A DNA stretch of 64,000 nt from Candidatus Fermentibacterota bacterium (GTDB lineage: Bacteria > Fermentibacterota > Fermentibacteria > Fermentibacterales > JCC-6): the NCBI GenBank assembly GCA_030592645.1, contig JAUVIR010000002.1:8065-72064 (forward strand). The letters are read 5' to 3'. Below are positions 32,819 through 49,067 of the stretch, piece after piece. The notes under the pieces are model-generated. The model made no database searches. It saw only the letters and a list, made by a program, of their open reading frames with translations, and was not told the origin of the DNA. The stretch's first letter is position 1; every line of letters starts with the position of its first letter. A program made the position numbers and the translations under genes.

Positions 32819-33838
32819 ATGCTTTTCATAAAACGGAGCAATTTCGATCAGCTTCTGAAGTCCCTTACCGGGGATTACAAAGTGTACGTTCCTCGCAGTA
32901 TGGGGAACACCACTGGCTATTCTCTTCTGGGCGAATCGGATACTAATTATGAGATTGGCGAGATCAGATCATTTGACCCTCTCAAATCATTCTATTTCCT
33001 GAGTCGGGAGAAGGTCGCCGAAGATTTCAAGCCGGATATCATTCGGGATGATAAACCTCCATGCATTGTAGGAGCCAAGGCATGTGACCTTAAAGGTTTC
33101 AGAGTTCTTGATTTTGTATTCATAGATGATGAATGCGGTGATCCCACTTATATGAAAGCAAGAGAAAAGGGGCTGATCATATCCGCGGACTGCACCGGAT
33201 TTGGCGAAACATGCTTCTGTACAGCGGTAGATATCGATCCCTGGCCTCAATCCGATTTTGATGTTAACCTGTCTCCAGTCGATGACGGTTTCATAGTTAC
33301 TACTGGAAGCGATAAAGGCCTCAATCTTATTGAAAGTAATAAGAGCCTTTTCATTGAAGCAACCGATACTCAGATTGAGTTTATTCAGCAGAATAGAAGC
33401 ACTGTAAAATCCAGTGTAATGAAAAGCGCCAAGGCGCTTCGAATCCCGGTCGCCGACAGACTCAGAAGAGTTATTAAAAAACAGTACGATTCCAATATCT
33501 GGAAAGATGCTTCTGAAGACTGTGTGGAATGCGGAGCCTGCAATACCATATGTCCAACCTGTCACTGCTTCCTGCTGTACGATCAGAAATCCGACGGCAG
33601 GCTTGCAAGGTTCAGAATATGGGATTCATGTATGCTACACGATTTTGCGAGAGTGGCCGGCGGAGATAATCCGCGGGACAGATTATGGATGAGGCTCAGA
33701 AACAGATTCGATAAGAAATTCAATTATTTCCCTGAAGTCCTGAAAGAGATCGGCTGTACCGGTTGCGGCAGATGCATAGCCGCCTGTCCAGGCAAAATAG
33801 ACATTAGAGAAGTTCTGGCAAGGCTGGAAGTAACATGA
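32819..33838 (+). CDS. Iron-sulfur subunit related to anaerobic sulfite reductase AsrA / sulfhydrogenase HydB (2 x [4Fe-4S])
   Basis: CVECGACNTICPTCHC and CTGCGRCIAACPG ferredoxin-type motifs. N-terminus (MLFIKRSNFDQLLKSL...YKVYVP) matches the AsrA family start. The ORF-track start at 32759 is likely too long. Confidence 0.65.
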   Translation: MLFIKRSNFDQLLKSLTGDYKVYVPRSMGNTTGYSLLGESDTNYEIGEIRSFDPLKSFYFLSREKVAEDFKPDIIRDDKPPCIVGAKACDLKGFRVLDFVFIDDECGDPTYMKAREKGLIISADCTGFGETCFCTAVDIDPWPQSDFDVNLSPVDDGFIVTTGSDKGLNLIESNKSLFIEATDTQIEFIQQNRSTVKSSVMKSAKALRIPVADRLRRVIKKQYDSNIWKDASEDCVECGACNTICPTCHCFLLYDQKSDGRLARFRIWDSCMLHDFARVAGGDNPRDRLWMRLRNRFDKKFNYFPEVLKEIGCTGCGRCIAACPGKIDIREVLARLEVT

Positions 33839-34650
33839 AGAATCCATACAGTTCAATTGAGGCAGAGGTACTTAAGGTAACAACCGAAACACCTTCAATA
33901 AAAACATTCCTTCTGAAACCAAAGGAAGAACTCACTTTCAAACCCGGGCAGTTCATGGAATTCTCGGTTCCCGGATCAGGTGAAGCTCCCTTTACACCAT
34001 CATCAGACTCACAGATCAAGGACACGATGGAAATAACCATCGTGAAAGTTGGGAAAGTTACCGATGCCATACACGAATTGAAACCCGGTGATACAGTCGG
34101 TCTGAGAGGACCATTGGGCAAGGGATATCCACTCACAAAATTCATAGGCCAGGATATACTGGTTATCGGTGGCGGTGTGGGGCTTGCCCCTGTCAGGACC
34201 CTTATGTACGGTCTTTTCCACATGAGAGATCAGCTTTCAGGGCTTGTCTACAGAGGCGGATGCAGAAATCCGGAAGAGTTTCTCTACCGCAAGGAGCTTG
34301 AGGAGTGGATGAAACGGGACGATATAGACATGAAACTTACCGTTGATCAGGGAGACGATTCATGGGACGGCCCTGTAGGAGTGGTTACGACTATCATGGA
34401 TGATATCGATGTTAATTTTGAAAGGGCAAAAGCTATCGTATGCGGCCCGCCAATCATGATGAAGTTTGCAACATTCAAACTGCAGGAACTCGGGGTTAAG
34501 GACAGAAATATTTATCTCTCCATGGAGAAGAATATGTCCTGCGGTTTCGGCAAGTGCGGACATTGCAGAATTGGCCCTTATTACTGCTGCAAGGATGGCC
34601 CTGTCTTTACTTACGATATGATCCGGGAATACCCCGGAATCTGGGAGTAG
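33835..34650 (+). CDS. FAD/NAD(P)-binding [2Fe-2S] subunit related to AsrB / sulfhydrogenase HydG / PyrK family
   Basis: FNR-like flavin and NAD(P) binding segments plus C-terminal CGFGKCGHC..G..YC 2Fe-2S motif. ATGA overlap with the upstream gene. Confidence 0.7.
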   Translation: MKNPYSSIEAEVLKVTTETPSIKTFLLKPKEELTFKPGQFMEFSVPGSGEAPFTPSSDSQIKDTMEITIVKVGKVTDAIHELKPGDTVGLRGPLGKGYPLTKFIGQDILVIGGGVGLAPVRTLMYGLFHMRDQLSGLVYRGGCRNPEEFLYRKELEEWMKRDDIDMKLTVDQGDDSWDGPVGVVTTIMDDIDVNFERAKAIVCGPPIMMKFATFKLQELGVKDRNIYLSMEKNMSCGFGKCGHCRIGPYYCCKDGPVFTYDMIREYPGIWE

Positions 34651-34657
34651 GATACCG

Positions 34658-35203
34658 ATGGAGATGAACAAAACAACATTTGATCAGCTTCACGGTAGAA
34701 TCGATGCTGTTGAGAAGAAAAAAGGCGGAAAGAAGCTTTTTATTGATCTGGATATCTGCAATTCCGATCAATGCGAGAAATGCGTTATAGAATGCAGCTA
34801 TTTCTATCATCATATCAACAACGGAATTATTTCTCTCATTGAACTTGCAACCTATGCCCTTATCTGTAGACAGTGCGAAGAACCGCATTGTGTAAACGCC
34901 TGCCCCAGAGACGCTCTTGAGAAGATAGAAGGCGGCGATATGCTCGTAAGGTATACTGCTCTTTGCGTTAACTGCCGTTCCTGCTCACATGCCTGTCCAT
35001 ACGGAACCATATATCCTGAAATCGTACCGTATCTTGCCAATATCTGTGATTATTGTGAAGACAGAGGGAATTATACCTGCATTCCAACCTGTCCATACGG
35101 TGCCCTGTCATCGGTCAAAGGAAAAGTTGAGGGAGAGAACGTATTCGAACTTGGTAATCGTCTTGTAGTACACTCCACTCACTGGGACAGGAGCAACGCA
35201 TGA
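34658..35203 (+). CDS. Multi-cluster 4Fe-4S ferredoxin (HycB/HyfA-like electron-transfer subunit)
   Basis: Four Cys clusters (CEKCVIEC, CRQCEEPHCVNACP, CVNCRSCSHACPYG, CDYCED...CIPTCPYG). Confidence 0.65.
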   Translation: MEMNKTTFDQLHGRIDAVEKKKGGKKLFIDLDICNSDQCEKCVIECSYFYHHINNGIISLIELATYALICRQCEEPHCVNACPRDALEKIEGGDMLVRYTALCVNCRSCSHACPYGTIYPEIVPYLANICDYCEDRGNYTCIPTCPYGALSSVKGKVEGENVFELGNRLVVHSTHWDRSNA

Positions 35204-36114
35204 CGTTCGTCTACCTGCTTGTGTTCGGTTTTGCAGCTACAGCAGTGCTGGGTCTGATCACCAGCTGGATAGACAGAAAAGTTACAGCAAGGGTTCAGTA
35301 TAGAGTAGGTCCTCCTTTCCTTCAGCCTTTCATCGATATAGTGAAACTTCTGGGCAAAGAAACCGTCATACCGGAAGGGGCTTCAAAGGTAACTTTCCTT
35401 ATTGCCCCGGTTATCGGGATCTCCGGTGTAATTGCAGTTGCAACACTGTTCTGGGTCAACCAGTTCTTTTCCGAGGGTTTTGTGGGAGACTGGATTGTTG
35501 CGATCTACCTCCTTGCAATTCCCTCACTCAGCATTATTCTCGGCGGATTTGCTTCAAGAAATCCTTTAGCCAGCCTTGGATCCTCCAGGGAGATGAAGCT
35601 TGTTATTGCTTACGAGCTTCCCTTCATTCTTGCGGCTCTTGTCCCGGTAATCGCTGCTGGCGGTTCCATTCGCTTGAGCGATATCATCAATGCGCAGGCA
35701 GGGGGAGTTTTTGCCGGCAACATTTCCGGAATACTGGCACTGATAGTTGCCATTATGTGCGTTCAGGCAAAGCTTGCGCTGGTTCCTTTTGATATCCCCG
35801 AAGCTGAAACGGAAATTGTCGGCGGTGCGCTTTTAGAATACTCCGGTCCGGGACTTGCCATATTCAGACTCATGAAGAACATGCTTTTCTTCACCCTGCC
35901 GTTCTTCCTGATAATACTTTTCTTCGGCGGGCTGCGATTGAACGGGATAAACATCCTCTGGACGATCCTTGAATACGTGGGAATTGTAGCGATAATAACA
36001 GTCATCCGTAATACCAACCCCAGGGTACGGATAGATCAGGCTGTCAGGTTTTTCTGGGGTCCAATGACATTGCTCGCTGTTGCTGCTGTTGTACTGGCAT
36101 TAAAAGGTTTATAG
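35200..36114 (+). CDS. Membrane subunit of group-4 [NiFe] hydrogenase, NuoH/HycD/MbhM family
   Basis: N-terminal R.Q.RVGPPFLQPFIDIVKLLGKE signature of complex I subunit 1 homologues. About 8 transmembrane helices. Confidence 0.8.
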   Translation: MTFVYLLVFGFAATAVLGLITSWIDRKVTARVQYRVGPPFLQPFIDIVKLLGKETVIPEGASKVTFLIAPVIGISGVIAVATLFWVNQFFSEGFVGDWIVAIYLLAIPSLSIILGGFASRNPLASLGSSREMKLVIAYELPFILAALVPVIAAGGSIRLSDIINAQAGGVFAGNISGILALIVAIMCVQAKLALVPFDIPEAETEIVGGALLEYSGPGLAIFRLMKNMLFFTLPFFLIILFFGGLRLNGINILWTILEYVGIVAIITVIRNTNPRVRIDQAVRFFWGPMTLLAVAAVVLALKGL

Positions 36115-36135
36115 AAGGGTAAGGCTACAACTGTA

Positions 36136-36558
36136 ATGAGCCTGAAATTGAAAGCACTCTTGAAATCGCCGTGGGTTTTTCATCTGTCCACCGGCAGCTG
36201 CAATAACTGTGATATAGAAATACTGGATTGTCTTACCCCCAGGTTCGATATCGAACGTTTCGGTATGCTGCTGATCGGAAGCATAAAGCATGCTGATGTC
36301 CTGCTTGTTACAGGCTCCTGTAACAGAATGTCCGTAGAGAGGCTGAAAGTCCTTTACGAGCAGGTTCCGAAGCCGTGCCTGGTTGTTGCCATCGGAACGT
36401 GTGCCGGATCCAGGGGAATTTTCAAGGACAGTTACAACTGCCCGGTACCGCTTGATAAGATAATACCTGTCGATGTTTACATACCCGGCTGCCCACCAAA
36501 ACCCGAAGCGATGATCGCAGGTGTGGTAAAACTGATTGAGAAAGTTGGCGGCGCCTAA
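36136..36558 (+). CDS. [NiFe] hydrogenase small subunit, NuoB/HycG/MbhJ family
   Basis: Conserved Cys pattern (GSCNNCDIE, GTCAGS, IPGCPPKPE) ligating the proximal 4Fe-4S cluster. Confidence 0.85.
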   Translation: MSLKLKALLKSPWVFHLSTGSCNNCDIEILDCLTPRFDIERFGMLLIGSIKHADVLLVTGSCNRMSVERLKVLYEQVPKPCLVVAIGTCAGSRGIFKDSYNCPVPLDKIIPVDVYIPGCPPKPEAMIAGVVKLIEKVGGA

Positions 36559-37031
36559 TGATAAGAGAAGAAATACTTCTGGATTTCACCAGCCGTTTTC
36601 ATGCGGATATTCTTGATCTGGAGGACAAGTCCAATACCCGGGTATATGTGGAAATCACCCCGGAATCCCTAGTGAGAATTGGAACTTATCTGTTCAGAAA
36701 TATCGGCGCCAGGTTCAATATCGCCACAGCCACTGACCTACCCCCGAAAATCGAGATACTCTACCATTTCCTTGTAGAGGATATCAATCTGCTTATCTCA
36801 CTTAGGGTTTTCCTTGACGGAGAAAAACCTGAGATCGAATCCCTTGCGAAAGAAATAGAGGCTTTCAACTGGATAGAGAGAGAGATGAGCGAACTTCTTG
36901 GTATTACCTTCATCGGACATCCCGATCCCCGGAGGCTTCTCCTGGCCGACAACTGGCCCGAAGGAGTCTGCCCCCTGAGGCAGGATTATGAGGAGTGGGA
37001 TGAAACAGTCGACAGGACGAGAGGTGTATAA
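36558..37031 (+). CDS. NuoC / 30-kDa subunit homologue (MbhK-like)
   Basis: Complex I 30-kDa family fold. Position between the small and large subunit genes. Confidence 0.7.
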   Translation: MIREEILLDFTSRFHADILDLEDKSNTRVYVEITPESLVRIGTYLFRNIGARFNIATATDLPPKIEILYHFLVEDINLLISLRVFLDGEKPEIESLAKEIEAFNWIEREMSELLGITFIGHPDPRRLLLADNWPEGVCPLRQDYEEWDETVDRTRGV

Positions 37032-38215
37032 TGGGTAAAACGATAATACCTATTGGTCCTTATCACCCTTTGCAGGAAGAGCCGGAATTCTTCACTCTTA
37101 CCGTTGAGGGCGAGACTGTTGTTGATATTGATGTAAGAATAGGATACAACCACAGAGGTATTGAGAAGCTGTCGGAGATGAAAACCTTCGAGAACAGCAC
37201 CTTCGTGGTGGAGAGAATTTGCGGTATCTGTTCCACAAGCCATCCGTACGCATATACGAGAGCTGTTGAAGATATCTTTCCCATGGAAGTATCCATGAGA
37301 TCAAAATACATCAGGACGATCATTGCCGAGGGGGAAAGAATTCATTCCCATCTTCTCTGGCTTGGTCTTGCCGGTCATTTCCTGGGTTACAACACAGTTT
37401 ATATGTGGGCCTGGAAACTCCGCGAGGAAATACTTGATGTCATGGAGATACTGTCCGGAAACCGAAACAATTACGCCATGTTCAAACCGGGCGGAGTCCG
37501 CAGAGACATTAATGCTGAGGATATTCCGATATGCATCAAGAAGATCGATTCCATTCTCCCCACACTTAATATGCTGAAGAAAGCCGTTCTTGATGATCCT
37601 GTGCTTCATGCAAGACTCAAGGGTGTCGGCGTTCTGAGCTATCAGGATGCCATTGATTTCAGTGCGCTGGGGCCAACATCCAGAGCTTCCGGTGTAGCCC
37701 GTGACGTCAGGAAGGATTCTCCCTACGGAGCATACCAGGAGATGGAATGGGACATGATCGTAACAAAGAACGGTGATGTTTTCGATAAAGCTGTTGTTCG
37801 CATACTTGAGATGTTTGAAACGGCAAAGATAATGAAGTACTGTCTCAATAATCTCCCGGACGGCGAGATAGACGCTAAGATAAAGGATATTCCTCCCGGT
37901 GAGGGGATAGGCCACATAGAGGCTCCAAGAGGAGAGACTTTCCACTACGTGAAAAGCGATGGGACGAACAGACCTATGCGGCACAAGGTGCGGGCTCCGA
38001 CATTCATGAACTTTCCCACCTACAAGGCAACCGTGAAGGGGCAGACTATTTCAGATGCAACTATAATCCTTGCCGCAATCGATCCCTGTTACTGCTGTAC
38101 TGAAAGAATAGCCGTGAAGGATGTTAAGGGCAGGATGCTCTATGACGGACAGGATCTTATCAGGCTCAGCCGCGAGAAGACCGAGAAGATGAAACAGAGG
38201 ATGGGGGTCAGATGA
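37031..38215 (+). CDS. [NiFe] hydrogenase large (catalytic) subunit, NuoD/HycE/MbhL family
   Basis: N-terminal RICGICSTSH (RxCGxCxxxH) and C-terminal DPCYCCTER (DPCxxCxxR) NiFe-ligand motifs both present. Confidence 0.85.
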   Translation: MGKTIIPIGPYHPLQEEPEFFTLTVEGETVVDIDVRIGYNHRGIEKLSEMKTFENSTFVVERICGICSTSHPYAYTRAVEDIFPMEVSMRSKYIRTIIAEGERIHSHLLWLGLAGHFLGYNTVYMWAWKLREEILDVMEILSGNRNNYAMFKPGGVRRDINAEDIPICIKKIDSILPTLNMLKKAVLDDPVLHARLKGVGVLSYQDAIDFSALGPTSRASGVARDVRKDSPYGAYQEMEWDMIVTKNGDVFDKAVVRILEMFETAKIMKYCLNNLPDGEIDAKIKDIPPGEGIGHIEAPRGETFHYVKSDGTNRPMRHKVRAPTFMNFPTYKATVKGQTISDATIILAAIDPCYCCTERIAVKDVKGRMLYDGQDLIRLSREKTEKMKQRMGVR

Positions 38216-39915
38216 GCTTTAATCTGATAATAGACGCCCTTAAGAACCCGAACGGCTTTTTCGCCAGTAATCCTTTGTCGCTTCTCTGTGCGGCATTTGC
38301 TACACTTTTCTTTGTCCTGATCGTAGTTTATTCTCTGAAACACATGAAAGGCCGCAAGGGTGTATGGCGCTATTACATATACACCATCGCAACATATGTC
38401 AGCTCCCTCGGTGTGCTGTTCGCGGCTAATTTCCTGATTCTGCTGATATTCTGGGGATTGCTTGGTCTTCTTCTTTACCTGTTGATAGCATTCGGGCGTA
38501 AGGAGGGTACTCCGGCGACTGCAAGGAAGGCTCTGATAATTGTTGGCGCTACAGATGTCCTGCTGCTCTTCGGTATTGTTCTTGTCTGGAAAATAACTGC
38601 AGGTTCTTCAGGATTACAGGGTCTTTTTCATATGCCGATCACTGGAATGGGTATACCGCTTTCGGGAACTGCATCGATTATCGCGTACCTCTGTTTCGCT
38701 TCGGCGGCGTTTGCCAAAGCCGGAGCCATGCCGTTCCATACATGGGTTCCAGATACTGCTGAGAACGCTCCAACTCCGGTGACTGCTTTTCTCCCCGCTT
38801 CGCTGGATAAACTCCTTGGAATCTATTTACTAGCAAGAGTCACCCTTGATGTTTTCCAGATGACCCCGACGATGAACACGATACTTATGGCTATAGGCAG
38901 CATCACTATTGTTGCTGCAGTTATGATGGCTCTTATTCAGCATGATCTGAAGAGACTGCTTGGTTATCATGCTGTAAGTCAGGTTGGTTACATGGTTCTG
39001 GGGATAGGTACTGGAAACCCCATAGGAATAGCTGGCGGTCTTTTTCATATGTTCAACCACTCCATCTACAAATCCTGCCTTTTCCTTGCAGGAGGAGCTG
39101 CAGAAAGGAAAGCCGGTACCGGTAATCTGGCACAGATGGGGGGACTTGTTAAAGCGATTCCTCTCGTATTTGTGACATTCCTTATCGCTTCACTGGCGAT
39201 TTCAGGAGTACCTCCGATGAATGGCTTTGCTTCGAAATGGCTCATATATCAAGGCGTTATAACATCTGGCGATTCGTTATGGGTTCTCTGGCTCATCGCT
39301 GCCATGCTGGGCAGCGCCCTGACTCTTGCCAGTTTTATGAAACTTATCCATGCAGTTTTCCTTGGGCAGCCTTCCGAAGGTGTGAAGAAAATTCTTGCTG
39401 ACAAGAAAGGAAAGAGAACAGCTTTATCAACCGCAATCCCGCTTGTTGTCCTTTCCACTCTGTGTGTTGGTATTGGTGTGTTTGCCTGGAAGATTCCATT
39501 TGGTCAGCTGTTCCGTCCTGAGTTAAGCGGTCCGGTTGATTCACCAGGTATCTGGCAATCCGGAACAGCAACACTCATGCTTATTGCGGGGCTGGTAATC
39601 GGTTATCTCATATACCTTGCAGGAACCTTGAAGAAAGCCAGAGTAGTGGCGCCTTTTGTGGGCGGTGAAACTCTGGAAGATAACCCGGACATGAGGGTAT
39701 CAGGTGTGAATTTCTACATGACCATCAAGGAGCTGGGCCTTCTCAAGGGTATCTACCGCTGGGCAGAAAAGAAATTATTCGACCTGTATGTTGTTGCCGG
39801 AAAGATATTTGCCGGTTTCGGTATACTTTTCTCTTTCATGCATAACGGCATATTGTCCAGATATTTCCTCTGGTTTATTGTCGGGCTTGTCGTACTATGC
39901 ATAGTGCTGATCTGA
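38212..39915 (+). CDS. MrpA/NuoL-like proton-pumping antiporter subunit
   Basis: Polytopic membrane protein with NuoL/MrpA-family motifs (WVPDTAENAPTPV, HMFNHSIYKS). Confidence 0.75.
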   Translation: MSFNLIIDALKNPNGFFASNPLSLLCAAFATLFFVLIVVYSLKHMKGRKGVWRYYIYTIATYVSSLGVLFAANFLILLIFWGLLGLLLYLLIAFGRKEGTPATARKALIIVGATDVLLLFGIVLVWKITAGSSGLQGLFHMPITGMGIPLSGTASIIAYLCFASAAFAKAGAMPFHTWVPDTAENAPTPVTAFLPASLDKLLGIYLLARVTLDVFQMTPTMNTILMAIGSITIVAAVMMALIQHDLKRLLGYHAVSQVGYMVLGIGTGNPIGIAGGLFHMFNHSIYKSCLFLAGGAAERKAGTGNLAQMGGLVKAIPLVFVTFLIASLAISGVPPMNGFASKWLIYQGVITSGDSLWVLWLIAAMLGSALTLASFMKLIHAVFLGQPSEGVKKILADKKGKRTALSTAIPLVVLSTLCVGIGVFAWKIPFGQLFRPELSGPVDSPGIWQSGTATLMLIAGLVIGYLIYLAGTLKKARVVAPFVGGETLEDNPDMRVSGVNFYMTIKELGLLKGIYRWAEKKLFDLYVVAGKIFAGFGILFSFMHNGILSRYFLWFIVGLVVLCIVLI

Positions 39916-39928
39916 TTGGGCTGAGAAT

Positions 39929-40477
39929 ATGATTGAATTATACGTACTTCTGGGTCTGATGATCGCTGGAGCGATAATAGCGATAGAGGTCAGGAACCTT
40001 CTGTCAGCCGTTGTAGCCGTAGGTATCGTAGGGCTCGCACTATCCATCATTTTCCTCCTTCTGAAAGCACCGGATGTGGCCCTTACCCAGATCGTTGTCG
40101 AAATAGTCGCAGTAATTTTGCTGATAAGAGCGACCTTGCACAGGGAGATAGCTCAGAAATCCTGTGGAACCCGGCCTTTCGGAGCTTTCATGGGAATTCT
40201 TTTCCTGGGACTTGCCGTTGTAGCGGCGATTGTAACTTTCAGCAGCGGTCTTTCTCCCTTCGGAGAACCTCTCATGACCGTTTCACGGTTCTATCCACTG
40301 AATGCCATAGCGGGAACCGGGGCTACGAATGTCGTGTCCTCCATCATTCTCGATTATCGCGCCTATGATACCCTTGGAGAGGCTACTGTTCTATTCACCG
40401 CTGTAATTGGCGTACTGACAGTGATGCGAAGTGTAGGGAAGAAAAAAGAGGAAGATTTGCAGGAGAACCATGAGTAA
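39929..40477 (+). CDS. MrpA C-terminal-domain-like (DUF4040 / MbhD-like) membrane subunit
   Basis: Small hydrophobic protein at the position and with the hydrophobicity of the MrpA C-terminal region. Confidence 0.55.
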   Translation: MIELYVLLGLMIAGAIIAIEVRNLLSAVVAVGIVGLALSIIFLLLKAPDVALTQIVVEIVAVILLIRATLHREIAQKSCGTRPFGAFMGILFLGLAVVAAIVTFSSGLSPFGEPLMTVSRFYPLNAIAGTGATNVVSSIILDYRAYDTLGEATVLFTAVIGVLTVMRSVGKKKEEDLQENHE

Positions 40478-40925
40478 AGAACACGATCGCGGAATGTCTG
40501 TCATAGTAAAAACGGTCACGAGGCTTACCGTTGGTCTGATACTTCTTTATGGGATCTACATTATTCTGCATGGGCATCTTACACCGGGCGGCGGATTCGC
40601 TGGAGGGGTTATCATAGCCCTGGCTTTTATAAATCTTGACCTGGCTTTCGGAGGCAGCGCTGCAGCGAAGATATTCTCAAAGAGAAACACTGGTCTTGTC
40701 GAGGCGCTGGGAGCTGTAATGTTCCTTACTCTGGCTCTATTAGGTATGAAATACGGAGGGTTCTTCGATAACTTCCTCCATCCGGATGGAAATCCGGGAC
40801 AGCTTGTCAGTGCCGGAATAATTCCTCTCGAAAACATCGCCATCAGCCTTAAAGTGGGTGCCGGTCTGTTTGGAATATTCCTTACCCTGATAGTTCTTCA
40901 GAAATTTGAATCGGAGAAGAAGTGA
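40470..40925 (+). CDS. MrpB/MnhB-like antiporter subunit
   Basis: GHLTPGGGFAGGVI motif typical of MnhB. Confidence 0.65.
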   Translation: MSKEHDRGMSVIVKTVTRLTVGLILLYGIYIILHGHLTPGGGFAGGVIIALAFINLDLAFGGSAAAKIFSKRNTGLVEALGAVMFLTLALLGMKYGGFFDNFLHPDGNPGQLVSAGIIPLENIAISLKVGAGLFGIFLTLIVLQKFESEKK

Positions 40926-41278
40926 TGAATGCGTATATGCCCTATGTACTCTGCATGATACTCTTCAGCATCGGTATCTACGCGATCCTTTCAAAACGGA
41001 ACATAATTAAGATCATACTGGGAGTAGTGATAGCGGAGTACGCTGTGAACCTTTTTCTTGTTCTTGTTGCCTACAAGGTTGGAGGGAGATCGGCAATTTT
41101 CTCTGAAACACAGGTTATTCTTCCCGAATCGATGGTTGATCCGCTTCCACACGCTCTTGTACTTACATCAATTGTGATCGGGCTCGCCACTACGGCTTTT
41201 CTTATCGCACTTGCAATAAGACTGTACGGTAAATATGGAACCTTTGACATAACAAGAATGCGGGAGTTAAGAGGATGA
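40922..41278 (+). CDS. MrpC/MnhC / NuoK-like subunit
   Basis: 118-aa three-helix membrane protein. NuoK/MnhC-like. Confidence 0.65.
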   Translation: MMNAYMPYVLCMILFSIGIYAILSKRNIIKIILGVVIAEYAVNLFLVLVAYKVGGRSAIFSETQVILPESMVDPLPHALVLTSIVIGLATTAFLIALAIRLYGKYGTFDITRMRELRG

Positions 41279-42774
41279 TAAGTGCAGGCATTGTACCGCT
41301 TTTTGTAGCGATCCCGCTTGCGGGGGCTTTCTTGATCGCTCTGTTTAAGAAAATAAAGGGAATTCCTGATATATTCGGGGTTTTTGCTTCCGGAAGCATG
41401 TTTATCCTTTCCATTCTCTTCCTACTGAAGATGGAGATCACTCAGAGGATAGTCTATAACATCGGCAACTGGGGCGGATTCAACGAAGTACTCGGAAAAA
41501 TTGTGGGAATTCAGCTCGTGATCGATGGGCTGACCATATTCATGCTCCTGATAGTGAATTTTGTCGCATTCATTGTTGCTGTGTATTCGGTTAATTACAT
41601 GACCAGATACACTCAGAAATGGCAGTTCTACTGCCTGTTCCTCCTCATGCTTGCCGGGATGAATGGTGTTTTGATCACCGGTGATCTGTTCAACCTTTTT
41701 GTATTCGTTGAGATAGCATCCCTTGCAAGCTATGCGCTGGTTGCATTCGGTACCGAGAAACGTGAACTCGAAGCCTCATTCAAGTACGCTGTTATGGGTG
41801 GCGTAGCTTCACTCCTGATCCTGATGGGAGTGGTATTCCTGTACAGCTATACCGGCACACTGAATATGGCCAATATGGCAGAAATCATGTCTGGTTCGGA
41901 GCAGCCTGCCCTGATATATCTTGTATTCGGGCTCTTCCTGACAGGGTTCGGGCTGAAAGCCGCTATGGTTCCGTTCCATGCCTGGCTTCCTGATGCTCAT
42001 CCTTCAGCTCCGGCTCCGATTTCGGCAATGCTGTCCGGTGTATTGATTAAAACCCTGGGAGTGTATGCAATAGCCAGGGTATTCTTCACCATTTTCGGAT
42101 TTCCCCATCAGATCTCGATCATCCTGATGACACTCGGAGCCATGTCAATGGGGGTAGGTGCCCTTGTAGCACTGAGGCAGTGGGATATGAAGAGGCTGCT
42201 TGCCTACAGCTCGATAAGCCAGATAGGTTACATAATGCTCGGATTGGGCATCGGTACACCTCTTGGAATACTGGGAGCCCTGTTTCACCTGTTCAACCAT
42301 TCAATATTCAAATCCCTTCTATTTCTTGATTCGGGAGCCGTTGAATACGCCGCCGGAACAAGGGATTTAAAAGAAATGGGCGGGCTTTCAAGAAAACTTC
42401 CGGTAACCAGCGGGTCCACACTTGCCGGAGCCATGTCACTGGCCGGTATTCCTCCATTCGCGGGTTTCTGGAGCAAACTGATCATCATAATTGCCGCTGT
42501 AGAAGCGAACCACATGAAACTCGCCGCGTGGGCAGTCCTCATGAGCATTGTAACGATTGCCTACATTCTCAAGGTAACAAGATTCGCGTTTCTTGGTGCC
42601 CTCAAAGATAGATTCGTGAATATCAAAGAGGTACCTGTACTCATGAGGATATCACTTGTATTGCTTGCTCTGATCTGCATATTCGGCGGGTTGCTTCTCA
42701 TTCCCGAAGCGAGGGCTGCATTCCTGGAGCCCGCAGTCAGAGTGCTGATTTCCGGAATGGGCGGGGGGGTGTAG
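41275..42774 (+). CDS. MrpD / NuoM-NuoN-like second antiporter subunit
   Basis: HAWLPDAHPSAPAPISA and HLFNHSIFKS motifs of the proton-translocating NuoL/M/N superfamily. 499 aa. Confidence 0.75.
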   Translation: MISAGIVPLFVAIPLAGAFLIALFKKIKGIPDIFGVFASGSMFILSILFLLKMEITQRIVYNIGNWGGFNEVLGKIVGIQLVIDGLTIFMLLIVNFVAFIVAVYSVNYMTRYTQKWQFYCLFLLMLAGMNGVLITGDLFNLFVFVEIASLASYALVAFGTEKRELEASFKYAVMGGVASLLILMGVVFLYSYTGTLNMANMAEIMSGSEQPALIYLVFGLFLTGFGLKAAMVPFHAWLPDAHPSAPAPISAMLSGVLIKTLGVYAIARVFFTIFGFPHQISIILMTLGAMSMGVGALVALRQWDMKRLLAYSSISQIGYIMLGLGIGTPLGILGALFHLFNHSIFKSLLFLDSGAVEYAAGTRDLKEMGGLSRKLPVTSGSTLAGAMSLAGIPPFAGFWSKLIIIIAAVEANHMKLAAWAVLMSIVTIAYILKVTRFAFLGALKDRFVNIKEVPVLMRISLVLLALICIFGGLLLIPEARAAFLEPAVRVLISGMGGGV

Positions 42775-42777
42775 GTC

Positions 42778-43290
42778 ATGAAGAGTAGAATCCTGATGTT
42801 CACATTCGCTTTCGCAGTATGGTGCATTCTCTGCTGGGTGCCGGACACGCAGCATCTGATAGCCGGAGCCGTAGTAGCGCTGATAGTCGCTGCCATTATG
42901 GGTTCGATGTTCGTCACCAGGCCGCATATGCTTTTCAATCCTATCAGGGTTTTCTATTTCCTGTTCTGGTACATTCCGATCTTCATCTGGGAGCTTATTA
43001 GAGCCAATTTCGATGTTGCTTACCGTGTGATTCATCCATCTATGCCCATCAAGCCCGGTATTGTAAGGCTGAAAACTGAACTTAAATCCGACACGGGGCT
43101 CACTTTTCTGGCAAACTCCATAACACTGACCCCCGGTACACTTACGGTTGATATAAATAAGGACGACGGTATTCTGTACATACACTGGATCAATGTTGTG
43201 GGGTCAGACCCCGAGACAACATACCGGGAGATCGGCAGCAGATTCGAACCGATGTTGAAGAAGATTTTCGAAGAAGATGTGGTAAAATAA
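42778..43290 (+). CDS. MrpE/MnhE-like subunit
   Basis: Size, two N-terminal transmembrane helices and position after mrpD. Confidence 0.55.
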   Translation: MKSRILMFTFAFAVWCILCWVPDTQHLIAGAVVALIVAAIMGSMFVTRPHMLFNPIRVFYFLFWYIPIFIWELIRANFDVAYRVIHPSMPIKPGIVRLKTELKSDTGLTFLANSITLTPGTLTVDINKDDGILYIHWINVVGSDPETTYREIGSRFEPMLKKIFEEDVVK

Positions 43291-43661
43291 TGAAGTTAGT
43301 GAGATGGATTTCTGGAACAGTAGTACTGCTTGCAATTATTATCCTTATTATCGTGCTTCCATTCAGAAGTATGTTTTTCTCGCAGGATGCAGCGCATATC
43401 GGTTTTGTCGGCAGGGTTATATACATACTGATACTCTCTTCGGTACTGATCCTGTTCAGGGTTTTAAAAGGCCCGACTGCCGCAGACAGGATTGTTGCCA
43501 TTGACATTTTCGGCATACTGATCGTTGGTCTCTGCGCGGTACTCGGCATTGCAACAGGCCGTTCATGGTACATTGACATCGGCATCGCCTGGGGGCTTCA
43601 GAGCTTCATCGGCACACTGGCTCTTGCCAAGTATCTGGAGGGAAGAAGCTTCGATGATTGA
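43290..43661 (+). CDS. MrpF/MnhF-like subunit
   Basis: Small 3-helix membrane protein between the mrpE-like and mrpG-like genes. Confidence 0.5.
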   Translation: MKLVRWISGTVVLLAIIILIIVLPFRSMFFSQDAAHIGFVGRVIYILILSSVLILFRVLKGPTAADRIVAIDIFGILIVGLCAVLGIATGRSWYIDIGIAWGLQSFIGTLALAKYLEGRSFDD

Positions 43662-43992
43662 TATAATCGGAATGATATTCGTTGGAACAGGGTTGGCATT
43701 TGATGTTCTTGGCTGTCTAGGTCTTGTAAGGCTTCCGGATGTCTACAACAGGCTGCAGGCCGCTACGAAATGTGTAACCCTCGGTACGTGCAGTATTCTT
43801 TTCGGGACGTTCCTGATGTCCGGCGGATTTACCCCGACAGGTTTTAAAGCTCTGATAGCAATAGTATTCCTTGTTCTCGCATCACCTGTAGCGGCACACG
43901 CCATTTCGCGCGGGGCGCACAGAGCTGGTATCAAACTCTGGGACAAGAGTGTAGTGGACAGTTATGCAGAAGATAGAGAAGGAGAAGCTTAA
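43654..43992 (+). CDS. MrpG/MnhG-like subunit
   Basis: MIDIIGMIFVGTGLAFDVLGCLGLVRLPDVYNRLQAATK matches MnhG/PhaG. ATGATTGA overlap with the upstream gene. The ORF-track start at 43525 is too long. Confidence 0.65.
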   Translation: MIDIIGMIFVGTGLAFDVLGCLGLVRLPDVYNRLQAATKCVTLGTCSILFGTFLMSGGFTPTGFKALIAIVFLVLASPVAAHAISRGAHRAGIKLWDKSVVDSYAEDREGEA

Positions 43993-44001
43993 AATAGCGG
44001 G

Positions 44002-44646
44002 TTGCGCAAGCGATACGTTACGGATGGAAATATGAAATATCCAAAGATCAGAGAAATTGTAGAAGCAGTCAAAGCAGTTGTCAAGGGACCATACACATCT
44101 AAATTCCCTGCGGAACCGCATATAGCGCACCCAAATTTCAGAGGGCAGCCGGTATTCGACCAGGATAAGTGTCTTGGATGCCTTGCCTGCGAGGAGTGCT
44201 GTCCTTCGGAAGCCATTACACATGAAGACATCCTTGAAGGCCCCGGTGCTCCGAAAAGAGTGATGATCCATCATACGGATGACTGCATCTATTGCGGGGT
44301 CTGCGTTGATGCCTGCATAAGAGAGACCGGTGATACCGGAATAGTGCAGACCAACGACTGGAATCTGGCATACTTCGACCGCAGCAAGGCTTTCGAGACT
44401 ATAGAGAAAGATCTGCAGCTCTGCGAGGTATGCGGTGTCATTATCGGTACGAAAGATCATCTGGTATGGATCGCTGAAAAATTGGGCGAGCTCTCGTTCT
44501 CAAATCCTACGCTTTACCTCTCAAGGCTTAGAAAACTCGGCCTTGCGGATGATAACATTCAGGCTGTACTGGAAGACAACGGCCGCTCCGACAGGGTTAA
44601 GATCCTCTGCGCTGAATGCAGGCGCAAAACCACCCTCTACGAGTAG
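44002..44646 (+). CDS. NuoI/MbhN-like 2 x [4Fe-4S] ferredoxin subunit
   Basis: CLGCLACEECCP and CIYCGVCVDAC motifs. A second CEVCG...C cluster region near the C-terminus. Confidence 0.7.
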   Translation: MRKRYVTDGNMKYPKIREIVEAVKAVVKGPYTSKFPAEPHIAHPNFRGQPVFDQDKCLGCLACEECCPSEAITHEDILEGPGAPKRVMIHHTDDCIYCGVCVDACIRETGDTGIVQTNDWNLAYFDRSKAFETIEKDLQLCEVCGVIIGTKDHLVWIAEKLGELSFSNPTLYLSRLRKLGLADDNIQAVLEDNGRSDRVKILCAECRRKTTLYE

Positions 44647-44661
44647 AAGCCTAAGCAAATT

Positions 44662-44735
44662 GGGGCCGGGCCTAACATCTAAACATTCATTACCAGTTTA
44701 TCAAAAAGAAATGTTTAGATGTTAGGCCCGGCCCC
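44662..44735. repeat. Palindromic element, copy 3: 26-bp perfect inverted repeat with 22-nt loop (GGGGCCGGGCCTAACATCTAAACATT ... AATGTTTAGATGTTAGGCCCGGCCCC)
   Basis: Arms 44662-44687 and 44710-44735 are exact reverse complements. Same GGGGCCGGGC base as copies 1 and 2. Lies in the 124-bp gap between the NuoI-like gene and hycI. Confidence 0.85.
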
Positions 44736-44770
44736 TGATTCATTATGCCAAAATTCAAGATACGACCCCA

Positions 44771-45229
44771 ATGACACTTAAAGATAAACTGGCTTCTTGC
44801 TTAGAGGGCAAAGTGGTTTACATGGGTATCGGTAATATTCTCAGGGGGGATGACGGTATCGGTCCCGAACTGGTGGCCAGATTGTCCGAGAAAGGTCTGT
44901 GCACAGTGGACGCCGGAACGGCTCCGGAGAATTATATACGTCCGGTCGCCAGGTTCGAACCTGACACGATAGTCATAGTTGATGCTGTTCATCTGGACAG
45001 GGAACCCGGATCTGTTGAACTGCTTGACCGCAGTGAGATATTGGAAAATACGGGTTTTACGACCCATACCCTCTCACCAGTGCTTGTCATGGAAAGACTT
45101 GAGGATGAAACAGGGGCCAGGGTGGTCATGCTTGCAATTCAACCCGGGACTCTTGAGTTCGGCGCGTCATTGTCTCCCGAAGTAGACCGCCTGCTTGATA
45201 TACTGCCGGATCTGCTGACCCTGGAGTAA
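44771..45229 (+). CDS. hycI: Hydrogenase maturation endopeptidase (HycI/HybD family)
   Basis: VYMGIGNILRGDDGIGPELV and downstream His region of the aspartic endopeptidase family. 152 aa. Confidence 0.8.
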   Translation: MTLKDKLASCLEGKVVYMGIGNILRGDDGIGPELVARLSEKGLCTVDAGTAPENYIRPVARFEPDTIVIVDAVHLDREPGSVELLDRSEILENTGFTTHTLSPVLVMERLEDETGARVVMLAIQPGTLEFGASLSPEVDRLLDILPDLLTLE

Positions 45230-45230
45230 T

Positions 45231-46832
45231 GTGAGCACAGGCATGAGACAGAAATCGGGAAATTCCTCCGGGGGAGAGATGGCAATCCTTTTTCTGATGA
45301 TTGCCGTTGTTGTTTCCATATTCCTTCTGATCAGCAATTTCGGTGTTCAGCTTGTTGATGACGGCTATTACTATCTGGAAATTGCCCGGAACATCGCAAG
45401 CGGAAACGGTTTTACCTTTGACGGATTGAATCCGACGAACGGTTTTCATCCGCTGTGGCAGATCATGCTTGTTCCGATATTTCTTCTAACCCGGAGCAGA
45501 GCTCTTGCTGCCATTGCTGTAACCATGCTGCAGGTCCTGCTTTTCGCTGGAACCGGTTTTATGGTCTACAGGATTCTGATCGAAAATACGAAGAAAATCA
45601 GCCTTTCTATCGCTGGCGCTGCCTTCTGGCTTTTTAATCTCTGGTTCTGGAGCAAGGGCGCGCTCTCCGGAATGGAGACCGGGCTTCTGACATTATGTTT
45701 CGGGACGAGTCTTCTTCTTTTTATCCGTTCACTATCCGGATCGTGCAGCACATGGCTGCTATCAGTTTCTCTTATCGTAACCTGCATGGCAAGGCTTGAT
45801 TCAATTGCCCTGGTCATCGCGATCTGTCTGATATTCCTCCTTCTTAAAAGGTTCCGTGATGCTGCTCGCACCGGGCTTCCGGTGATACTTTACCTGGCAC
45901 TCTACATGATAACCAGCAAGCTGGTCTTCGGGGGAATGCTCCCTGTTTCCGGATACATTAAATCCGCTACCGGCAGAGAACTGCTGGGACAGTTATTCGC
46001 AACTGGAAATATGAGGTTTGCTCAGCATGGAGTAACTAATATCTTAAGTTTTGTCACTATTGGAGGACGAGTTCCACTTTTACTATCCCTTGCGGCTATC
46101 GCTGGAATCATCTGGGCAGTACTTCATATCCTCAGAACCGCGGTTACTCCGATCAGAGAAGTGGTTGGCGTATGCTGCATTTACACAGTCTGTCTTTTAC
46201 TCTATTACTCATTTATGTACGAATCGCTTCTCGATATCTACACCTACTACTGGTTTCCGGTGATTCTCGGAATCATTATTTCAATATTTCTTCTACTGTC
46301 GCGAATACAGTACAGGTTACTCAGATCGGGCATTATCTGGATACTTCTCGCTGGACTTATCGGTTTTAATTATGTGTATGCACATGATCGGCTGCAGAGT
46401 TACTCATTTGTGATACCTGATTCGGACAGGCCTGAGCGGAATGGGGTTGAATTCCTGAACACACTTGATGACGGAACAGTGATCGGATCCTGGGACGCGG
46501 GATATGTGGGTTACTACTGCAGGCACAGAGTCGTTAATCTGGATGGTCTTGTAAATAACTATGAATATCAGGTCATCCTGCGTGAACAGGGGCTTGCAGA
46601 ATACCTTGATACGCAGAACATTACATGTATTGCAAACATCGATCACTTCACAGGTCAGAAAGATTTCATGGAACGTATGACCGGATGGTATCTGGCTTTT
46701 GAGGATTCGAGCGCATTCCCCAATCCTGTTTCACTGTTCTCAGTATCAGCGGGAGGCAGCCTGTATGCGTCTCGTCAATCCAGAATATTTTTCGTGTATT
46801 GCAGGTCGGACTCTGTTGATCTTGATAAATGA
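45231..46832 (+). CDS. GT-C fold membrane glycosyltransferase (ArnT/PMT-like family 39/83-like)
   Basis: DDGYYYLEIARNIASGNGF acidic loop motif after the first transmembrane helix and GFHPLW. About 12 transmembrane helices. 533 aa. Confidence 0.5.
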   Translation: MSTGMRQKSGNSSGGEMAILFLMIAVVVSIFLLISNFGVQLVDDGYYYLEIARNIASGNGFTFDGLNPTNGFHPLWQIMLVPIFLLTRSRALAAIAVTMLQVLLFAGTGFMVYRILIENTKKISLSIAGAAFWLFNLWFWSKGALSGMETGLLTLCFGTSLLLFIRSLSGSCSTWLLSVSLIVTCMARLDSIALVIAICLIFLLLKRFRDAARTGLPVILYLALYMITSKLVFGGMLPVSGYIKSATGRELLGQLFATGNMRFAQHGVTNILSFVTIGGRVPLLLSLAAIAGIIWAVLHILRTAVTPIREVVGVCCIYTVCLLLYYSFMYESLLDIYTYYWFPVILGIIISIFLLLSRIQYRLLRSGIIWILLAGLIGFNYVYAHDRLQSYSFVIPDSDRPERNGVEFLNTLDDGTVIGSWDAGYVGYYCRHRVVNLDGLVNNYEYQVILREQGLAEYLDTQNITCIANIDHFTGQKDFMERMTGWYLAFEDSSAFPNPVSLFSVSAGGSLYASRQSRIFFVYCRSDSVDLDK

Positions 46833-46839
46833 CTTCCAG

Positions 46840-47163
46840 CTAACGTAACAATCTACGTTCCAGAAGATCCTGAAGGTCTCTTCTTCCGTCAAGAACACAA
46901 TGAACGAATACCTTCTTACCTTCGATCTCGTAAATTACGCGATAAGGTTTGAAATGGAGTTCCAGATAGTTACTGACACTGATCCGCCTTAGTTCTGGAG
47001 GGATGTGACCACGTTCTGGAAGCTGATCGAGGGTATTACAGATTTCTTCAAGTTTGCCAAGGACGTAGTCTGCCTTGCGATCAGAATCATGTTCAAGAAT
47101 ATAGCGATAGATATCAAAAAGATCTTCTTGGACGTCGTGAATGATAATTACCTGATATGTCAC
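46840..47163 (-). CDS. parE: Type II toxin, RelE/ParE family
   Basis: 107 aa. ParE-like pattern (...SNYLELHFKPYRVIYEIEGKKVFVHCVLDGRRD). 4-bp overlap with the upstream antitoxin gene. Confidence 0.75.
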   Translation of the reverse strand: MTYQVIIIHDVQEDLFDIYRYILEHDSDRKADYVLGKLEEICNTLDQLPERGHIPPELRRISVSNYLELHFKPYRVIYEIEGKKVFVHCVLDGRRDLQDLLERRLLR

Positions 47164-47447
47164 TTGAGATTCTTGATTCGAGAACGAATACTATTAAAGG
47201 ATTGCTTTGCAGTCCTGTAGTTTCCTTCTCGTTTACTTTTTGAACTCTGGGCCAGCATTTTCAATAGTGCCAGACTTTCCTGTGTCTGCTCATATGATTC
47301 CAGATCCTGAACAATCACCTTCGCCTCGCCGTTCTGGGTTATAATAAAAGTCTTGTGTTCATCTGAAATTTCACGCAGCAATTCAGATGCATGTGCTTTC
47401 AAATAACTGATTGATTTAACAGAATCACTCAATTTCATGACAATCAC
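47160..47447 (-). CDS. Type II antitoxin, Phd/YefM family
   Basis: KTFIITQNGEAKVIVQDLESYEQTQESLALLK is the classic Phd/YefM core. True start is probably MKLSD at 47438. Confidence 0.7.
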   Translation of the reverse strand: MIVMKLSDSVKSISYLKAHASELLREISDEHKTFIITQNGEAKVIVQDLESYEQTQESLALLKMLAQSSKSKREGNYRTAKQSFNSIRSRIKNLK

Positions 47448-47647
47448 CTCAGACCATATATAGTTCGAATATAGGTCATGTCAAGATTTCTCAACTTGCG
47501 GGATTAACAATTGATTTATTTATGAATAAGCTTATCACTTTCATCGAGCTTAAAGCTTGCGCATTCAGATGGAGATCTTGATCTGGCTGATAGACTGGGA
47601 AATATCTTTATGAATACGACAATCAATCTGGGCATCTCTTTGGTTTA

Positions 47648-47839
47648 GTGAATCTTCAGGTATTTGACCTATCCGGGAGACTTATTTCTGAGCTTGATGC
47701 TGTTTCCTGTGAAGGGAAGGCTGTATTTCATTGGAATGGAGAAACATCTTCAGGAGTTGAACTCCCGTCAGGTATCTATACAGCAAGGCTATATTCGGGG
47801 CGTACAGTTATCACCGCAACGCTGTTAAAGCTTGAGTAG
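47648..47839 (+). pseudogene. Remnant of a T9SS/FlgD-Ig-type C-terminal sorting domain (63 aa, no upstream coding body)
   Basis: NLQVFDLSGRLISELDAV...LPSGIYTARLYSGRTVITATLLKLE closely parallels the C-terminal domain of the protein at 20442-21347. In-frame stops lie immediately upstream. Confidence 0.45.
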
Positions 47840-47934
47840 TAAGCTGTCCCGAGGCGATATGAACCATTGAACGTCAAATCACAAGACCATCATGGGGGCT
47901 CAGAAAGTAATACTTTTGAGAACTGGCACGGTTC

Positions 47935-48627
47935 CTAACTGTAATTGGATTCCACGAAATCGCAGAATTCTTCCATACCTTCGCCGGTCTTCGCCGAGAC
48001 GGTGAATACAAGAACGTCAGGATTGAGGCTTCTGCATTCCTCGATGGCCCTGTCCACGTCAAAATCAAGATGGGGGAGAAGATCCATCTTGTTAATTACC
48101 AGTACGTTGATAGTGCTGAAAAGACTGGGGTACTTGAGTATTTTGTCGTCACCCTCGGGTACCGAAAGAAGACCAATTCTCAGGTTTTCACCCAGATCGT
48201 AACCGCTTGGACAAATCAGATTCCCAACATTCTCGATCGCCAGTAACTCCAGTATGTCCGAATCCAGCTCCATCTGATCCATTGCATGTTTTACAGCATG
48301 GGCATCAAGATGGCAGGCGCCTCCGGTTTCTATCTGCCAGGCCTGGCATCCGGCTTTCTCTATCCTCTCAGCATCTCTTCTAGTTTGAATATCACCCTCT
48401 ATGACGGCCATTCTGGAACCGAAATAGTGTGCCATGGATTCCAATACGGTAGTTTTACCGGCACCGGGAGAGCTTATCAGATTAAGAGTGTAGATACCTT
48501 TTCCTTTCAGAAATCCTCTGTTCTCCGCGGCAAAGAGGTCATTTTTATTCATGACTGAAGTAGTTATGTCAATTTTCTGTTCAATTATCTCATCACACAT
48601 ATCAATCCTCTCCTTCTTCCAGTTCAA
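47935..48627 (-). CDS. hypB: Hydrogenase nickel incorporation GTPase HypB
   Basis: SPGAGKTT P-loop, CxxC-containing N-terminus, G-domain motifs. 230 aa. Confidence 0.9.
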   Translation of the reverse strand: MNWKKERIDMCDEIIEQKIDITTSVMNKNDLFAAENRGFLKGKGIYTLNLISSPGAGKTTVLESMAHYFGSRMAVIEGDIQTRRDAERIEKAGCQAWQIETGGACHLDAHAVKHAMDQMELDSDILELLAIENVGNLICPSGYDLGENLRIGLLSVPEGDDKILKYPSLFSTINVLVINKMDLLPHLDFDVDRAIEECRSLNPDVLVFTVSAKTGEGMEEFCDFVESNYS

Positions 48628-48949: not shown

Positions 48950-49005
48950 AGTATAGCCGCCATTCAGTTCAGGGAGGAAACACTGTGGTTAAAACCTTTT
49001 CAGAA

Positions 49006-49014
49006 TGGTAGAAT
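49006..49014 (+). promoter_or_regulatory. Possible extended -10 element (TGgTAGAAT) in the hypA/hypF divergent region
   Basis: Read directly. About 55 nt upstream of the hypF ATG. No convincing -35. Confidence 0.2.
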
Positions 49015-49067
49015 ATAACCTGTATTCAATATGTCAATGAGGATTATTCTATTCTGGAAGATCGGGT

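Follow-up and report, generated by a model that had tools for sequence, protein, structure and literature searches.

The 74-bp palindrome at positions 44662-44735 of the window, by which the whole 64,000-nt stretch of DNA analysed is meant, is very probably a non-autonomous mobile element of the REPIN kind that is tied to a RAYT, and a tolerated insertion rather than a conserved regulator of the hydrogenase operon in which it lies. The insertion is regarded as tolerated because the repeat is dispersed, lineage-specific and RAYT-linked, and because orthologous operons differ in whether they carry it intact, decayed or not at all. The element would be built of two inverted 26-nt terminal repeats around a short spacer, and the doublet would be mobilised in trans by a RAYT-type Y1 (HUH) tyrosine transposase, presumably the product of a single-copy gene at another place in the genome. 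A tolerated repeat insertion in the gap had been among the proposals of the earlier note, and the dispersal of the repeat in Fermentibacteria, its link to a RAYT and the state of the orthologous gaps all agree with it.

The hairpin and its place in the hydrogenase operon

The hairpin is formed by the two arms of a subfamily-B doublet. The left arm, GGGGCCGGGCCTAACATCTAAACATT (44662-44687, plus strand), and the right arm, AATGTTTAGATGTTAGGCCCGGCCCC (44710-44735, plus strand), are exact inverted repeats, with complementarity at 26 of 26 nucleotides. They enclose a 22-nt A-rich spacer, cattaccagtttatcaaaaaga (44688-44709, plus strand), which forms the loop and contains 10 A, 6 T, 4 C and 2 G. RNA folding of a 121-nt context of the hairpin yields -54.6 kcal/mol (z = -9.0 versus shuffles), and ssDNA folding of the surrounding 88 nt yields -31.6 kcal/mol (z = -10.2). 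The perfect 26-bp stem, the A-rich loop and the high stability described in the earlier note are thus borne out. The 26-mer of the B arm has no second match within the 64-kb window.

The operon encodes a group-4 hydrogenase. The upstream gene (44002-44646, plus strand) follows the Mrp-type antiporter subunits and is the last structural gene of the Mrp/Mbh-type operon; it encodes a 4Fe-4S dicluster protein, as identified by the Pfam Fer4 families and orthologue annotation. Its start is probably at 44032, because the orthologues have 204 aa. The downstream gene (44771-45229, plus strand) encodes the hydrogenase maturation protease HycI (Pfam PF01750, 63.5 bits; homologues). The HycI homologues assign the window to Candidatus Fermentibacteria/Aegiribacteria. 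The gap between the end of the Fer4 gene at 44646 and the hycI start at 44771 measures 124 bp. As the earlier note had stated, it is the sole sizeable gap of the operon: the remaining gaps among the approximately 16 co-directional genes from 32759 to 46832 do not exceed 40 bp. A ParE/Phd toxin-antitoxin pair (46840-47163 and 47160-47438, minus strand) occupies an insertion of ~1.1 kb (~46835-47950), which follows a 533-aa gene in the window and at the related locus L001 and is absent in L086, L002 and L003; in L091, a ParE/Phd-type pair lies immediately after hycI. A search for tRNA and tmRNA genes found none in the 64-kb window.

Repeat-derived sequence in the Fer4-hycI gap reaches past the hairpin on both sides. 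The left spacer, AAGCCTAAGCAAATT (44647-44661, plus strand), includes CTAAGCAAATT (44651-44661), which resembles the motif xTTTGCTwAG; by eye comparison only, this motif adjoins the clamp of other copies (the flanks at L047, L067, L070 and L091). On the right, a single arm of the palindromic family Y, GGGGTCGTATCTTGAATTTTGGCAT on the minus strand (44745-44769), stops 1 nt short of the hycI start codon. Exact copies of this arm form doublets elsewhere, either free-standing or nested within B elements (L061, L062, L067, L070 and L083).

Selection of the hairpin as a cis-regulatory RNA that sets the ratio of structural subunits to HycI, as an attenuator, a Rho-assisted terminator or a 3´-end stabiliser and maybe as an exapted repeat, is improbable. 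The hairpin lies in the operon's one large gap, where it will be transcribed, its stem is very stable, and REP325 of the E. coli yjdMN operon, a repeat hairpin that likewise lies between genes of one operon, has such a dual role (bioRxiv 10.64898/2026.03.23.713779). However, the U-rich tract that an intrinsic (Rho-independent) terminator carries directly 3´ of its stem is absent here. The tail, TGATTCATTAT, has a maximum of 4 T per 8-nt window starting 0-2 nt past the stem. A terminator consensus scan, whose loop limit of 8 would miss a 22-nt loop, called nothing at the hairpin, and no sigma-70-like promoter was predicted in the Fer4-hycI gap. The role of REP325 was demonstrated experimentally, whereas the comparison made here is an analogy and natural alleles that lack the hairpin exist.

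E. coli REPs make the mRNA upstream of them more stable and curb read-through, effects that depend on context and in part on Rho (bioRxiv 10.64898/2026.03.23.713779). By analogy, it is plausible that the hairpin stabilises the upstream mRNA and limits read-through into hycI, and it may thereby raise structural-gene expression relative to hycI. An attenuator, terminator or processing role, as suggested in the earlier note, is possible. In the mRNA, a very stable stem without a U-tract would act at most like an E. coli REP, possibly shielding the upstream message from 3´ exonucleases and reducing read-through. An effect on expression would be dispensable, because the alleles of L002 and L088/L089 have no hairpin, and would be a by-product of the insertion, not the reason why the element exists.

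Palindrome families and their dispersal

The 10-nt clamp GGGGCCGG[G/A]C (GGGGCCGGRC) and its complement also terminate two further palindromes of the window. The first (30772-30833) is a subfamily-A doublet with 27-bp arms and an 8-nt loop, from which the SLT/TPR gene at 28514-30808 takes its final 12 codons and stop codon; the identical 62-bp element recurs at an unrelated locus, L054. The second (31883-31943) is a subfamily-A2 doublet with 26 perfect pairs in the divergent region upstream of a PD40-repeat gene, and is preceded by a degenerate tandem copy of its flank and clamp start (31862-31875). The two copies bracket one minus-strand gene for a secreted PD40/beta-propeller protein (30839-~31853), and a type-A arm adjoins another lipoprotein-like gene in L078. 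The consensus of the subfamily-A arm, to which the first copy belongs, is GGGGCCGGGCGTCACTTCTGGTCACTT; that of subfamily B is the left arm of the hydrogenase-operon hairpin. The arms of copies 1 and 2 are of the GTCACTT type and those of the hydrogenase-operon copy of the CTAACAT type. The A and B arms are regarded as homologous because 20 of 27 aligned positions agree. The earlier description of the hairpin as a third copy of the same palindrome therefore holds for the clamp, which is common to all three, and fails for the subfamily, which is B. In total, the window contains three doublets and one singlet.

A loose pattern (GGGGCCGGRC N30-60 GYCCGGCCCC), run on viral contigs, returned 40 matches, all of which were chance occurrences in GC-rich phage with stems of only 8-18 bp. 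A stricter pattern, the clamp plus NTNAC on both sides, was therefore adopted for the genome scan, which covered 185,579 species with one genome each. This pattern retrieved 12 loci, 11 of which lie in Fermentibacteria/Aegiribacteria MAGs with unrelated flanks; the genome of the window was not among the GTDB species representatives that matched. The twelfth (L057, 7078-7185) is a longer palindrome of 108 bp with an identical clamp and a different interior near the end of a Thermoplasmata MAG contig; it is probably unrelated, and may be an assembly fold-back or come from a mis-binned contig. The 27-nt arm consensus was found at 27 loci in JGI metagenomes and had no match in viral contigs. Megablast of the Fer4-hycI region against plasmids returned no match. 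A search of the whole window with Rfam 15 gave no match at the gathering thresholds; at E ≤ 1, only generic eukaryotic miRNA-hairpin models appeared, with at most 36 bits versus the 65-184 needed.

These distributions bear on whether the palindrome is a product of chance or an artefact, such as an assembly fold-back. The palindrome of L057, if a fold-back, would be a precedent, but an identical or near-identical element is present in independent NCBI, JGI, ENA and Logan assemblies, none of 100 dinucleotide shuffles contained a match to the 26-mer, and the loose clamp pattern gave only short chance stems in phage. Such an origin is hardly credible. Hairpin-templated repair as a source of palindromes with differing interiors was also ruled out, because the interiors are ordinary subfamilies with a conserved consensus.

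The fetched Fermentibacteria DNA contains 68 distinct arm ends. An alignment of 12 B doublets, some of which are orthologous by flank comparison, represents about nine independent, non-orthologous sites. In this alignment, 97.8% of arm cells are paired and 21 of 26 pairs are invariant; pairs 9 and 10 are altered on both sides, and the loops drift. The loop is partly conserved among family members, so the element has an orientation. With the loop as the guide to orientation, the arm variation of the 12 doublets, including the recurrent A20 to T and C18 to T, is nearly confined to the left arm, and the right arm hardly varies. Copying thus seems to take a mismatched doublet as one unit, or constraint seems to differ between the arms. 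Identical 73-bp elements occur at L051 and L056, which belong to the same MAG and differ in their flanks, indicating recent copying.

The related arm families number at least five (A, A2, B, Y, Z and W), and separate transposases belong to A and to B. Arm-bounded units comprise 74-bp doublets, three-arm units of ~92 bp, nested units of ~145 bp, and coding units of ~1.09-1.2 kb. In the ~145-bp units, a family-Y palindrome (GGGGTCGTATCTTGAATTTTGGCAT ... ATGCCAAAATTCAAGATACGACCCC) is nested inside the loop. Families Y, Z and W have a common GGGGTC start, and both Y and Z were observed nested inside B doublets; further Y/Z/W palindromes are located at L061 11761-11832, L083 1178-1289 and 1885-1957, L090 3906-3978, and L091 1357-1430. 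A mini-palindrome made of the clamp only, GGGGCCGGGCCTTTAAAGCCCGGTCCC, is present at L067 2769-2795.

Neighbouring genes often take their last codons and stop codon from the arms. The SLT/TPR gene of the window (arm part 30772-30808) finishes in ...LGPGVTSGHLQR before its stop codon, an SHMT-like gene (L081 3108-3128) in ...GAGPNI and a Fer4 gene (L004 9896-9912) in ...YGGRT, each followed directly by the stop codon. The RAYT gene itself (L081 2038-2066) also ends within arm sequence. The called HycI start codon inside the right arm in L090 and L092 is probably a gene-calling artefact.

The arm-bounded transposases and comparison with known systems

Inverted B arms 1,089 bp apart, with the left-arm sequence of the window's hairpin, surround a 302-aa ORF at four loci (L081, L065, L094 and L095). 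A RAYT-B unit of the 302-aa type at L096 has variant arms, which co-vary to GGTGCC...GGCACC. Inverted A arms surround a 337-aa ORF in L068, which has a homologue in L076. Each of these kilobase-sized units contains one ORF, represented by RAYT-B (302 aa, L081 2057-2965, minus strand) between B arms and RAYT-A (337 aa, L068 171-1184, minus strand) between A arms. Both proteins match Pfam Y1_Tnp (38.5 bits for RAYT-B and 37.6 bits for RAYT-A; cut-off 23). Against NCBIfam NF047646, the REP-associated tyrosine transposase, RAYT-B scores 81.2 bits (cut-off 80) and RAYT-A scores 67.4, below the cut-off. The two proteins share 32% identity. A phmmer search of the PDB with the single RAYT-B sequence gave no match; a profile of 20 homologues matched E. 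coli TnpA-REP (4ER8, E = 6.7e-5) and aligned both the HUH motif and the YxxxNP motif. The homologues number thousands, and many carry the source name RayT. The RAYT-like proteins of L081 and L068 have a C-terminal extension of ~160-200 aa that is missing from E. coli TnpA-REP. Helix-turn-helix signals are weak: L068 is similar to the C-terminal region of DnaA, many homologues match HTH_23/HTH_38, and DeoR is a weak match in the PDB.

The RAYT-B gene is flanked by an SHMT gene and the same 475-aa gene at all five loci (L081, L065, L094, L095 and L096), which span 77-100% protein identity. Judged from sequence context, this arrangement appears to match the single-locus, vertical inheritance described for RAYTs (PMC5581495). 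Tblastn found no RAYT gene within the 64-kb window, so the evidence that ties the RAYT to the genome of the window comes from close relatives and from the same metagenomes. The RAYT would recognise and cut the element, as do the transposases of IS200/IS605 and E. coli TnpA-REP. Mobilisation of the doublet by the RAYT is presumed, and the filled and empty alleles described below support it indirectly.

The long terminal inverted repeats, short interiors and sizes of 74-146 bp would also suit a MITE of a DDE-type insertion sequence or Tn3-like transposon, moved by a DDE transposase, and the termini begin with GGGG like Tn3-like inverted repeats. However, no target-site duplication was found at the junctions of the oriented copies, the arm-bounded coding units at seven loci all encode Y1 HUH transposases, and no DDE transposase was seen beside any arm. 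A DDE origin is therefore very unlikely. No conserved flanking tetranucleotide or target motif was found: TAGC, CTG or AAAA stands before some ends, with no consensus.

Three features characteristic of the REPIN/RAYT system were observed: a short repeat at many mostly extragenic, unrelated sites; an inverted-repeat doublet with a spacer that forms a predicted hairpin; and, at the seven coding loci, a Y1 HUH RAYT gene inside inverted copies of the same repeats. The element resembles the TIRtrons/TIRYTs, which are RAYT-like genes flanked by long GGGG-initiated TIRs whose repeats also occur singly, as dimers and in groups (Di Nocera, De Gregorio and Rocco 2013, PMC3733652). As in these elements, a Y1 HUH gene is bounded by long inverted repeats that start with GGGG and form no hairpin singly (the single arms at the ends of RAYT units fold no better than shuffles, z = -0.96 to +0.40). 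The arms occur elsewhere as singles, dimers and groups, the transposases of 302-337 aa exceed classical RAYTs in length, and the 3´ end of the gene overlaps the TIR in L081 and L068. Long TIRs without self-complementarity are thus combined with a repeat family, as in TIRtrons/TIRYTs. Certain discrepancies exist. The published motif GGGGWSAS applies to some TIRs only; the A and B arms start GGGGCCGG, which leaves W at position 5 unmatched, the start of the W arm, GGGGTCAG, fits, and that of the Y arm, GGGGTCGT, fits partially. Fermentibacteria were outside that survey, and the nesting of families B, Y and Z was not described in it (PMC3733652).

Compared with the REPINs of P. fluorescens SBW25 (Bertels and Rainey 2011, PMC3116915), the element shares the hairpin-forming doublet as its unit, a separate repeat-flanked RAYT for each subfamily, singlets that look like decayed remnants, compensatory changes and, presumably, an asymmetric excision that leaves a few terminal bases of one arm. 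In contrast, the REPs of SBW25 are short palindromes with a GTAG tag, whereas the repeat here, a TIR of 26 nt that carries a GC clamp, is not palindromic, and copy numbers here appear lower. The likeness to the E. coli REP/BIME system with TnpA-REP lies in the homologous transposase (PMC3479197) and in extragenic repeats that often follow stop codons directly and lie within operons. E. coli REPs, however, are imperfect hairpins of ~35 nt with GTAG, and TnpA-REP has 165 aa and no C-terminal extension. The classical definition of a REP, an imperfect palindrome of 20-40 nt with a GTAG/CGTC tag, does not apply, because the single arms do not fold alone and have no GTAG tag; CGTC occurs only inside the stem of the A arm. 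The IS200/IS605 elements (IS608 and ISDra2) share the Pfam Y1_Tnp superfamily, a presumed single-strand, hairpin-guided mechanism and the lack of target duplication, but they are autonomous, multi-copy elements with subterminal imperfect hairpins, whereas here the transposase stays at one conserved locus and the doublets multiply. The element is of the REPIN/TIRtron type, and its organisation and presumed dynamics are those of a REPIN sensu Bertels and Rainey (PMC3116915). No report on repeats in Fermentibacteria was found in the literature.

Orthologous gaps and the re-use of sites

Orthologous Fer4-hycI spacers were fetched from eleven related contigs. L093 (HycI homologue P0019) was left out as non-orthologous, with a different upstream gene. 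The element is intact in three cases. L001, of the same strain, has one G to A SNP that breaks a stem pair; L086 (= L053 = L073) is identical over the whole 124-bp gap, with flanking coding DNA that is ~88-90% identical; and L092 has a compensatory C:G to T:A change at pair 10 and changes at 5 of 22 loop positions. The element of L003 is decayed, with a left arm matching at 26 of 26 positions, a different loop, and a right arm with 5 mismatches. L004-L006 have a half element, a left-arm-like piece only, which is continuous with the final codons and the stop of the Fer4 gene. In L090, the B arms are modified by a third family, Z, nested in the loop, and in L091 the palindrome W, GGGGTCAGGTCTTGCATTCGAGCATT..., replaces the element at the same position, with neither B nor Y. 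In L002 and L088/L089 the element is absent and a 12-bp remnant, aaattGGGC[C/T]CGGCCCCtgatt, is left. A hairpin conserved in all orthologues with compensatory changes, which the earlier note had held up as the mark of a regulatory structure, was not observed: only L092 is compensatory, and the others have the element absent, decayed or of a different family.

The empty allele of L002 and L088/L089 is a clean 62-bp gap in a spacer otherwise identical to that of the window, and its single flank difference is one C/T base in the remnant of L088. The last 9-11 nt of the right arm remain, and the junction reads aaattGGGCCCGGCCCCtgatt. The empty allele is most simply a loss, because the more distant L003, L092 and L090 carry B at this position. 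Replication slippage as the cause of the deletion is less favoured than an excision footprint, because the junction uses only a 2-nt microhomology (GG) although 4-nt GGCC repeats had been available. REPIN excisions in P. fluorescens are asymmetric, and the right REP keeps its terminal ~6 bp (PMC3116915); the empty-allele junction resembles this outcome. An asymmetric excision that spares the last ~10 nt of one arm would produce the 12-bp remnant in these two relatives.

The spacers of the window (44647-44770), L086 (2067-2190), L002 (7265-7326) and L088 (3939-4000) have 2 variable columns in ~134, compared with 6-14 per 50 in the flanking coding DNA, in which the four lineages differ by ~8-19%. 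The control spacer between hypA and hypF (window 48950-49067) has about 12 differences in L086 and 8 in L002 over 118 nt (7-10%). Such conservation is unexpected for neutral DNA, and the identical 124-bp gap in the window and L086 could reflect selection on the spacer instead of neutrality. It would favour a selected regulatory RNA, as would the compensatory change in L092 and the strong palindrome (B, B with nested Z, or W) in most orthologous gaps. However, L002 and L088/L089 retain the spacer and lack the hairpin, the right arm of L003 is mismatched, L004 has half an element, the SNP of L001 breaks the stem, and identical sequence is present at unrelated genomic sites. In coding DNA, L003 and L092 lie at the same distance, yet their spacers are strongly diverged, and L002 and L088 come from the same sample (ERZ25074835) and have the empty allele in common; these observations suggest two alleles of a recently shared haplotype. 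The filled and empty alleles are therefore read as such a haplotype, exchanged by apparent recombination among related populations, and not as long-term constraint.

Conserved arms with drifting loops also occur family-wide. At an unrelated locus, L055 and L056 have flanks of 72-78% identity, arms identical at 50 of 52 positions and divergent loops, which argues against a selected regulatory RNA in the hydrogenase operon. L060, L061 and L050 have three differing versions at one site, and a type-A element (L047) has its right flank in common with a type-B element that contains a nested Y (L067). Site persistence and re-use thus characterise the repeat family as a whole and are not peculiar to the hydrogenase operon, and the Fer4-hycI spacer would be one among many recurrently used landing sites of a REPIN-like insertion. 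A secondary usefulness of the hairpin in the operon is possible.

It is a doubtful, further-reaching proposal that the Fer4-hycI spacer and similar sites act as reusable landing pads, where the hairpin comes and goes and passes between co-occurring populations, as an expression switch at the population level. Asymmetric excision by the RAYT would leave a clamp footprint of ~7-12 nt, at which new doublets, even of sister families, could re-insert by pairing. Perfect tandem duplications precede 8 of the 68 arm ends; each repeats, at a period of 12-17 nt, 5-9 nt of flank together with the 7 nt that open the arm (GGGGCCG). Their locations include L047 62-88, L048 ~1065-1090, L050 ~1766-1790, L058 ~4514-4540, L068 93-185, L074 ~648-672 and L076 ~1124-1150; near-match duplications at window copy 2 (31862-31892) and L080 raise the number to ten. 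The duplication of L068 has a longer unit of 39 nt and stops at arm position 32. The left boundary of the duplications is fixed, and the right boundary falls at the hairpin base or in the loop. The duplications may be a trace of nicking, extension and religation by the transposase. If sites are indeed re-used as landing pads, the duplications would mark the nick or stall positions and provide a first sequence-level handle on the cut-and-paste of TIR-type RAYTs.

For annotation, the assignment of the hydrogenase-operon hairpin to a repeat family removes a tempting false positive, an operon-specific riboregulator, and several adjacent gene ends, as well as some predicted starts in relatives, consist of repeat sequence. 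The uncultured phylum Fermentibacteria is added to the hosts of RAYTs and TIRYTs. The nested elements and the clean filled and empty alleles in natural populations make this an unusually readable case, and experiments on how REPINs move, a mechanism that is yet to be proven, could take the footprint-like duplications as a guide.
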